A DNA stretch of 64,000 bases from Escherichia coli. GTDB taxonomy: Bacteria > Pseudomonadota > Gammaproteobacteria > Enterobacterales > Enterobacteriaceae. The DNA lies in NCBI RefSeq assembly GCF_016903815.1, contig NZ_CP069973.1. One strand, 5' to 3'. Each line of letters begins with the position of its first letter. Positions within the stretch are counted from its first letter, which is position 1. This document shows positions 60,228 to 61,809 of this stretch, in pieces. The notes beneath the pieces were generated by a model, which was not told the DNA's origin, ran no database searches, and worked only from the letters and a program-made list of their open reading frames with translations. The position numbers were made by a program, and so were the translations under genes.

Positions 60228-60361
60228 CGGGATACTCGTAACGAGTTGAATTTGTGTGATTTGTAGGCTGCACGCCACATCCGACATTCAGCGCCTGATG
60301 CGACGCTTGATGAACTGCACCCCAAATGTTGGACATAATCTGACATCTGAAGGTGCAGTTT

Positions 60362-60883
60362 ATGAAACATTCATTTGAAGTAAAACTTGCCGCTGTAAAT
60401 CATTACCTGGCTGGTCATGCAGGCATCATTTCTACGGCAAAACTCTTTCAACTTTCTCACACCAGCCTCTCACACTGGATTAATCTTTTTCTTCTTCACG
60501 GTCCTCGGGCACTGGATTGCAGACACAAGCGTAGCTATTCTCCTGAAGATAAACTTTGCGTGGTTCTTTATGCTCTCGGGCATTCTGAGTCTCTACCCCG
60601 GGTAGCTGCCCGGTTTAACATTCCCAGCCACAACACGGTTAAAAACTGGATAAAAGGCTACCGCAAATCTGGTAATGAGGCCTTTATCAGGCGCAGGAAG
60701 GAGAAAAGCATGACCCGTTCTGATGATACCCATGAAAACGAGGCAAACATGACGCCGGAAGAGATGAAGAATGAGCTACGTTATCTTCGCGCAGAAAATG
60801 CATATCTGAAAGCCATGCAGGAGCATCTCCTGGAAAAAAAGCGCCAGGAGCTGGAGAAAAAACGAAAGTCATCCGGAGCCTGA
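60362..60883 (+). CDS. insJ: IS150 OrfA (InsJ-like) HTH protein
   Basis: 173 aa from MKHSFEVKLAAVNHY; C-terminal leucine-zipper region; ends just after slippery site. Confidence 0.85.
   Translation: MKHSFEVKLAAVNHYLAGHAGIISTAKLFQLSHTSLSHWINLFLLHGPRALDCRHKRSYSPEDKLCVVLYALGHSESLPRVAARFNIPSHNTVKNWIKGYRKSGNEAFIRRRKEKSMTRSDDTHENEANMTPEEMKNELRYLRAENAYLKAMQEHLLEKKRQELEKKRKSSGA
60835..60841 (+). other. Programmed -1 ribosomal frameshift heptamer A-AAA-AAG linking orfA to orfB
   Basis: A AAA AAG in orfA frame at 60835..60841; orfB frame open from here to 61710. Confidence 0.7.
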
Positions 60884-60987
60884 GGTGCGGACACTGCCAG
60901 TCTGACCTGTTAAAGGCTGCAGGGCTGGCCAGAAGCACGCTGTACTACCAGCTGTCACTGCAGAAGGCTAAGGACAAGTATGCTGAT

Positions 60988-61710
60988 GTGAAACAGCTCA
61001 TAGCCTCCATCTTCCATGAACACCGGGGATGTTATGGGTACCGGCGGATCCATTGTGAGCTTCAGAAAAGAGGTCTTAAGTTCAGTGGCAAAACGGTGCG
61101 AAAACTGATGCAACAGCTCGGCCTGAAGTCTCCTGTGCGCCTGAAGAAATACCGGTCTTACCGGGGAAATATGGGACTCGCTGCAGAAAATATCCTTCAG
61201 CGGCAGTTCAAAGCGGAAGCTCCCTGTGAGAAATGGGTGACAGATATCACCGAATTCAGGGCTGGCGGACAAAAACTGTACCTGTCCCCGATACTTGATT
61301 TGTTTAACGGGGAAATCGTGGCGTGGGAAACTGCCTGCAGGCCTACAGAGGAGCTGGTGAAGCGGATGTTAAATAAGGGGCTGGAAAGCCTTGCTGAAGG
61401 GGAGAAACCGCTGCTCCACAGTGATCAAGGATGGCATTACCGGATAAAAAGTTATCAGTCCGCCCTGGCGGACAGAGGGTTAGTGCAGAGCATGTCGCGC
61501 AAGGGCAACTGCCTTGATAATGCGGTAATGGAGAACTTCTTTGGTCACCTGAAAGAAGAAATGTACTATCGCCGGGACTACAGAAATGTAGAAGAGCTGG
61601 AAAATGCCGTTAACGAATACATAACTTACTGGAATCAAAAAAGAATAAAACTCAGTCTTGGGGGACTCAGTCCGGTAGAATACCGGACTGAGCATCAAAA
61701 AGCCGGTTAA
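60988..61710 (+). CDS. insK: IS150 OrfB (InsK-like) DDE transposase catalytic domain, expressed as OrfAB fusion
   Basis: 240 aa from first ATG in -1 frame; rve/DDE integrase-type region (WVTDITEF ... HSDQGWHY ... LDNAVMENFFGHLKEE). Confidence 0.85.
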   Translation: MKQLIASIFHEHRGCYGYRRIHCELQKRGLKFSGKTVRKLMQQLGLKSPVRLKKYRSYRGNMGLAAENILQRQFKAEAPCEKWVTDITEFRAGGQKLYLSPILDLFNGEIVAWETACRPTEELVKRMLNKGLESLAEGEKPLLHSDQGWHYRIKSYQSALADRGLVQSMSRKGNCLDNAVMENFFGHLKEEMYYRRDYRNVEELENAVNEYITYWNQKRIKLSLGGLSPVEYRTEHQKAG

Positions 61711-61809
61711 CTGAAACTGTCCAGGTTTTGGGGTTCAGTTCATTGACGCGTCTTATCAGGCTTACAAGTCCCCAGCCCGAAACCGTAGGCAGGATCATCC
61801 GGCTGCACG

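Follow-up and report, generated by a model that had tools for sequence, protein, structure and literature searches.

An IS1397 element in the loop of a REP palindrome between ygcP and ygcQ of Escherichia coli

The ygcP-ygcQ spacer and the element it contains

The sequence under study, in the following called the window, is the whole stretch of 64,000 nucleotides of Escherichia coli DNA that was analysed. In it the gene ygcP (59652-60227, plus strand), which belongs to the glycerol-3-phosphate-responsive antiterminator family, is followed by ygcQ (61810-62670, minus strand), a member of the electron-transfer flavoprotein alpha subunit family. Both are open reading frames named after the annotation of identical DNA. 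These annotations were taken from strain 7/2 (NZ_CP023820.1), which is identical to the window over all 56,500 positions compared, with 0 mismatches. The two genes are convergent, and the spacer between them holds an IS3-family insertion sequence of 1432 bp on the plus strand (60311-61742), towards which ygcP, on the upstream side, is read. The left end of the element lies 83 nt from the ygcP stop (60227) and its right end 67 nt from the ygcQ stop (61810), the latter distance having been estimated at about 70 bp in the original prediction. Since the insertion is placed between two gene ends, no gene and no promoter is interrupted. It probably affects the host little.

An element of roughly 1.43 kb with imperfect terminal inverted repeats and a flanking TTGA direct repeat had been predicted from the sequence, and each of these features was recovered. 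The left inverted repeat (IRL, 60311-60335, plus strand) begins with 5'-TG and the right inverted repeat (IRR, 61718-61742, plus strand) closes with CA-3', as located by a repeat finder and an alignment of the ends, so that the termini follow the pattern 5'-TG...CA-3' (TGAAC...GTTCA). If the left end, TGAACTGCACCCCAAATGTTGGACA, is set against the reverse complement of the right end, TGAACTGAACCCCAAAACCTGGACA, 21 of 25 positions match; the repeat finder returned a 26-nt pair with 85% complementarity. With up to three mismatches allowed, the left-end 18-mer occurs within the 64-kb window at the two ends of the element only (0.09 occurrences expected by chance). TTGA stands directly outside of the element at 60307-60310 and again at 61743-61746. 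The corresponding empty site of K-12 contains a single TTGA, and by this comparison both copies are assigned to a target-site duplication, the left one being the loop of a REP. A 3-bp duplication, TGA, together with a 1433-bp element ending in an additional T fits the sequence equally well. Elements of the IS3 family are about 1.2-1.55 kb long with imperfect TG...CA repeats and duplicate 3-4 bp of their target; the length and ends found here and the TTGA duplication agree with this.

To name the element we compared the 1432 bp by megablast with 5426 complete E. coli genomes and obtained full-length matches at 100% identity, which RefSeq names 'IS3-like element IS1397 family transposase'. The name IS1397 as used here is taken from this annotation of identical DNA and from the matching biology. 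The published length of IS1397, which we take to be 1432 bp, is the same as that of the window element. The label is given because the identity to the RefSeq-named copies is 100% over the full length and because the encoded 449-aa protein, described below, matches exactly. Two subtypes of IS1397 about 1% apart can be distinguished, with 14-18 differences between the window copy and the copies at loci L019-L025. We are highly confident that 60311-61742 represents a complete and apparently functional IS1397, an IS3-family relative of IS150, in the hairpin loop of a REP in the ygcP-ygcQ spacer.

Other parts of the window contain features of their own. According to the annotation on identical DNA, a CRISPR array (43191-43765) is accompanied by the full set of type I-E cas genes in one operon from cas2 to cas3 (43191-52423 including the array), a toxin gene of the HigB family and, next to it, an HTH-domain gene are situated between ascB and hycI (3813-4540), and the mutS-rpoS interval holds a hydroxyarylic acid decarboxylase BCD cluster with a MarR regulator (29105-31926). 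Between cas3 and cysH a gene of the Hok/Gef family is found (about 52618-52770). We know of neither the HigB/HTH pair nor the decarboxylase BCD/MarR set at those positions in K-12.

Transposase frames and predicted RNA structures

The first frame of the element, orfA (60362-60883, plus strand), was identified as an open reading frame and by domain search. It encodes 173 aa with two HTH_28 domains and a C-terminal region resembling a coiled coil or leucine zipper. The exact protein is known from at least 1000 contigs, and the contig collection contains it in 13393 blocks. The frame of orfB, at -1, is open from 60775 to 61710, and the part of it that contributes to OrfAB (60841-61710, plus strand) carries HTH_21, rve and the DD(35)E signature (domain search, NF033516). 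Within the overlap of both frames a slippery heptamer for a programmed -1 frameshift, A AAA AAG (60835-60841, plus strand), is present in the phase of orfA and as the sole in-phase copy. If a -1 slip by one base is modelled at this heptamer, an OrfAB of 449 aa results that equals the NCBI "IS1397 family transposase" letter for letter, and RefSeq annotates the identical DNA of strain 7/2 with a coding sequence containing a 'programmed frameshift'. This bears out the expectation that OrfA and OrfB are intact and that the heptamer is in place.

The 449-aa fusion scores 387 bits against NCBIfam NF033516 (IS3 family transposase, cut-off 160) over the entire profile (1-369 of 369) and contains two HTH_28 domains, HTH_21 and rve (rve E = 7e-21). 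Its catalytic motifs, aligned with InsK of IS150, are WVTD, HSDQG and MEN, with the second D and the E separated by 35 residues and a K at +7. Two-frame ORFs with a slippery site and the DDE/rve spacing, both characteristic of the IS3 family, are thereby seen in the sequence, and the predicted family membership holds for every family property tested. The RNA 3' of the heptamer folds no better than shuffled sequences (z = -0.79) and thus gives no indication of a structure stimulating the frameshift. A consensus scan of the element for promoters and terminators gave no sigma-70-like promoter and one terminator-like site, which is no more than expected by chance.

By analogy to the IS3 family, -1 ribosomal frameshifting at A AAA AAG would join OrfA, which binds DNA, to OrfB with its DDE catalytic residues. 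OrfAB would then excise a copy of the element as a circle with abutted ends (copy-out/paste-in), and this circle would integrate through a staggered cut of 3-4 bp.

Two hairpins are predicted for the element. At the 5' end an RNA fold-back (60307-60366, plus strand) pairs IRL positions 60310-60321 with the region of the orfA Shine-Dalgarno sequence and ATG (60352-60364). Its predicted stability is -27 kcal/mol (z = -6.35), and 0 of 200 shuffles were as stable; no equivalent was found in the 5' region of IS150. Both arms are contained in transcripts coming from outside, e.g. from ygcP, and not in those with an internal start, so that the fold-back would form only in read-through RNA. As modelled, it probably blocks the translation of ygcP read-through transcripts. 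Protection from outside activation is a classic theme described for other insertion sequences, and the 5' fold-back resembles it.

The second hairpin is a perfect one of 12 bp with a 3-nt loop (61666-61692, plus strand; z = -4.56) and is located inside the 3' end of orfB, in the codons for LSPVEYRTE. In the other IS1397 subtype one of its pairs is a C-A mismatch, and the homologous codons of IS150 also contain a hairpin, whose sequence differs. On the level of sequence comparison this hints that the hairpin might be conserved in IS1397 and IS150 as a structure. One could go further and regard the 5' fold-back and the orfB 3' hairpin as uncharacterised regulatory parts of IS1397 that replace the mRNA-end functions of the split REP. 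We consider this rather doubtful; if it were true, an insertion fixed in a lineage would measurably alter the stability or termination of ygcP or ygcQRS mRNA.

REP loops as insertion sites and the occurrence of IS1397

Outside of the TTGA copies the element is bordered by two complementary arms, GCCTGATGCGACGC (60293-60306) on the left and GCGTCTTATCAGGC (61748-61761) on the right, which were recognized by an inverted-repeat finder and by comparison with K-12 as the split arms of a REP (palindromic unit). As the reference for the empty site we used E. coli K-12 MG1655, from ygcN to ygcS. If positions 60311-61746, i.e. the insertion sequence and one TTGA, are removed from the window, the remaining sequence reads GCCTGATGCGACGCTTGACGCGTCTTATCAGGC. 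This is a REP palindrome, as had been predicted for this reconstruction, and it is identical to the palindrome in the MG1655 ygcP-ygcQ spacer; the rest of the spacer differs from K-12 by few substitutions and one 1-nt indel. Folded as single-stranded DNA, the reconstructed palindrome gives a hairpin whose loop is TTGAC (-11.4 kcal/mol, z = -3.8, 0 of 200 shuffles equally stable). It follows that the element entered the apical loop and that the bases it duplicated belong to this loop. The characteristics of a REP, an extragenic imperfect palindrome of about 35 bp with a hairpin and a recurring consensus, are all found here: the palindrome lies in a spacer of convergent genes and its consensus recurs at nine unrelated intergenic sites and at position 53791 of the window. 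In complete E. coli genomes the median number of places matched by a 500-bp query of the empty site is 4.

The 14-mer GCCTGATGCGACGC also recurs in an intact REP at position 53791 of the window. This REP (53791-53823, GCCTGATGCGACGC-TCA-CGCGTCTTATCAGGC) is of the same type, unoccupied, and situated between cysI and cysH, which are 73 nt apart; IS1397 could use it as an additional target.

A single site cannot tell whether a non-specific insertion sequence has met a REP by coincidence, or whether the REP halves are themselves part of the mobile unit. We looked up the exact OrfA protein and obtained ten places with differing neighbours. One of these, L016, is the ygcP-ygcQ site itself in another genome (GCA_000692635.1). 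Another, L018, has the element only as far as position 1006, which makes a reconstruction of the target impossible, and it was left out. At 9 of the 9 two-ended places (L016 included) a REP hairpin was rebuilt with the insertion sequence in its apical loop, and insertion in the central loop of a REP, as expected of IS1397, is thus seen at the window site and at nine places. Seven of the nine show clear duplications of 3-4 bp, L016 shares its TTGA with the window, and at L022 the duplication is ambiguous with 2-3 bp. Half-REPs adjoin two additional left junctions (L005, L006) and the relic in K-12 described below. The flanking REPs are found in both orientations and belong to the GCCTGATGCGACGC type as well as to a GCCGGATGCGGCG type, and because types and orientations vary between the sites the arms are foreign to the element. 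K-12, moreover, possesses an intact REP and no insertion sequence at the position in question. Given this empty site and the varied REPs at the other places, REP arms as parts of the element were rejected, and we assign practically no probability to either the coincidence or the co-mobile arms.

That IS1397 seeks out REPs is in agreement with earlier work. As summarised in PMC1525189, which cites Clement 1999 and Wilde 2001 and 2003, the element was experimentally shown to insert specifically in E. coli REPs, with the transposase deciding, and supplementary file 13 of the same paper contains a CFT073 copy of IS1397 within a REP. The original prediction had treated REP targeting as an inference from one event. 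The insertion into a REP stands, whereas the targeting is a defining property of IS1397 (PMC1525189; the nine places above). The REP-loop position is the expected behaviour of IS1397 and evidence of nothing new. Following this literature, the REP loop would have been chosen by the IS1397 transposase; insertion at the ygcP-ygcQ REP loop duplicated the four loop bases (TTGA), and the insertion has since been inherited vertically.

The exact 24-nt left end of the element was searched in 100,044 species-representative genomes, where just two of the matches are genuinely IS1397: one is a decayed copy in E. coli, and the other is a contig of 415 bp that is assigned to Microbacterium and probably represents contamination. 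The same 24 nt also open unrelated or distantly related elements in Serratia nevei, Yersinia aldovae and contigs of metagenome-assembled genomes (Acholeplasmataceae, Lachnospiraceae, Bacteroidetes; loci L004 and L007-L015). In Serratia nevei the left flanks of three copies contain a GGGCGC motif, possibly representing halves of a Serratia REP.

Of the 5426 complete E. coli genomes, 3485 match the element at least in part, and 1707 have a place covering at least 80% of it. A query made of 250 bp of the ygcP side and 250 bp of the insertion sequence detected the left junction in 284 of the 5426 genomes, and the uninterrupted reconstructed site is present in 4814; in two genomes, 5CRE51 and IH5, the empty site is 100% identical to the reconstruction. 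As the junction is common to 284 genomes it is an inherited lineage marker, and with these numbers of occupied and empty sites a convenient one. The number of element-matching places per genome goes up to at least 40. In genomes with the ygcP-ygcQ insertion the full element is matched at 3 to 11 places, with 10 in the window-identical genome NZ_CP023820.1.

These numbers bear on the question of mobility. The window copy could be an intact-looking but immobile fossil of one ancestral insertion, for which the shared junction, indicating stable vertical inheritance, and the missing promoter-like site and significant frameshift-stimulating structure in our scans would speak. However, no damage is seen in either frame, in the slippery site, in the DDE residues or at either end, and the 3 to 11 places in the insertion-bearing genomes suggest continuing activity within the lineage. 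Transposition of IS1397 into the K-12 chromosome has also been published, judging by the title of Clement 1999 as cited in PMC1525189. We therefore regard the fossil as an improbable reading. The window copy is probably active, given that the frames, DD(35)E and slippery site are intact and that about 10 matching places occur in the matching genome; this is in line with the transposition competence that the original prediction considered likely. An IS1397 that is probably still active in genomes like the source of the window bears on the dynamics of REPs and BIMEs and on rearrangements mediated by insertion sequences in these clinical E. coli lineages.

We further report three observations on other IS1397 copies. 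K-12 MG1655 carries a 65-bp relic of the right end (L027 1201-1265, between yhhI/ISEc1 and yhhJ; IS positions 1368-1432, 95.4% identity), which adjoins the half-REP AACGCCTTATCCGGCC and is truncated beside the ISEc1 (H-repeat) transposase gene. This relic alone is found in K-12 and roughly 1780 other complete genomes. At L016 (2450-4240) the ygcP-ygcQ insertion consists of a rearranged IS1397 of 1791 bp with an internal partial duplication, in which positions 1-699 are followed by 1-305 and then by 766-1432. Finally, ISEc21, an IS110-family element, has split copies of IS1397 at IS position 1115/1116 as well as IS911 on plasmid pMAR2. The breaks at L017 3561/3562, L005 12259/12260 and L029 1500/1501 each fall on the codon boundary between H S D and Q G in the motif of the second catalytic Asp; such targeting of IS3-family transposase genes is already published (PMC11187229).

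Relation to IS150 and to other REP-targeting elements

The element had originally been called IS150-like, with an alignment to the IS150 reference as the proposed check. In this alignment the global nucleotide identity between the window element and the K-12 IS150 is 55%, the lengths being 1432 and 1443 bp, and the amino-acid identity is 28% for OrfA and 51% for OrfB (InsK). By the convention of ISfinder isoforms share over 95% nucleotide identity, far above the value obtained for IS150. A relationship is nevertheless evident. The K-12 IS150 (insJ/insK) has the same two-ORF layout, the same A AAA AAG signal, the DD(35)E signature, a hairpin at the 3' end of orfB and inverted repeats that are much alike (TGAACTGCACCC..TGTTGGAC here and TGTACTGCACCC..TGTTGGAC in IS150). 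It differs in its length, in its divergent OrfA and in that it is without the 5' fold-back. That the window element might be a copy or isoform of IS150 is accordingly very hard to maintain, as RefSeq names identical DNA IS1397, and the identification with IS150 was rejected. What stands of the original label is the kinship within the IS3 family, seen in the inverted repeats and OrfB, and what does not stand is IS150 itself. The practical value lies in the annotation, which should read IS1397 and not IS150-like. We know of no specialisation of IS150 on REPs.

The comparison with IS1397 is of a different kind. IS1397 was first found in natural E. coli isolates and is known from the work of Bachellier, Clement, Wilde and Hofnung. 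The DNA and the OrfAB protein of copies that RefSeq names IS1397 are the same as in the window, and the insertion into the loop of a palindromic unit or REP with a duplication of 3-4 bp, a property reported in PMC1525189, is shared; no difference was detected. The window element departs in nothing from the published IS1397 and is in this sense already known.

The preference for REPs is not limited to this element, as ISKpn1 of Klebsiella and, from the IS110/IS1111 families, IS621, ISPa11 and ISPpu9 target REPs too (PMC1525189, PMC11187229, PMC12288879). ISKpn1 prefers palindromic units of the Klebsiella type. The elements of the IS110/IS1111 families use an RNA-guided DEDD recombinase and create no target duplication, whereas the window element encodes a DDE transposase and is flanked by a 4-bp duplication.
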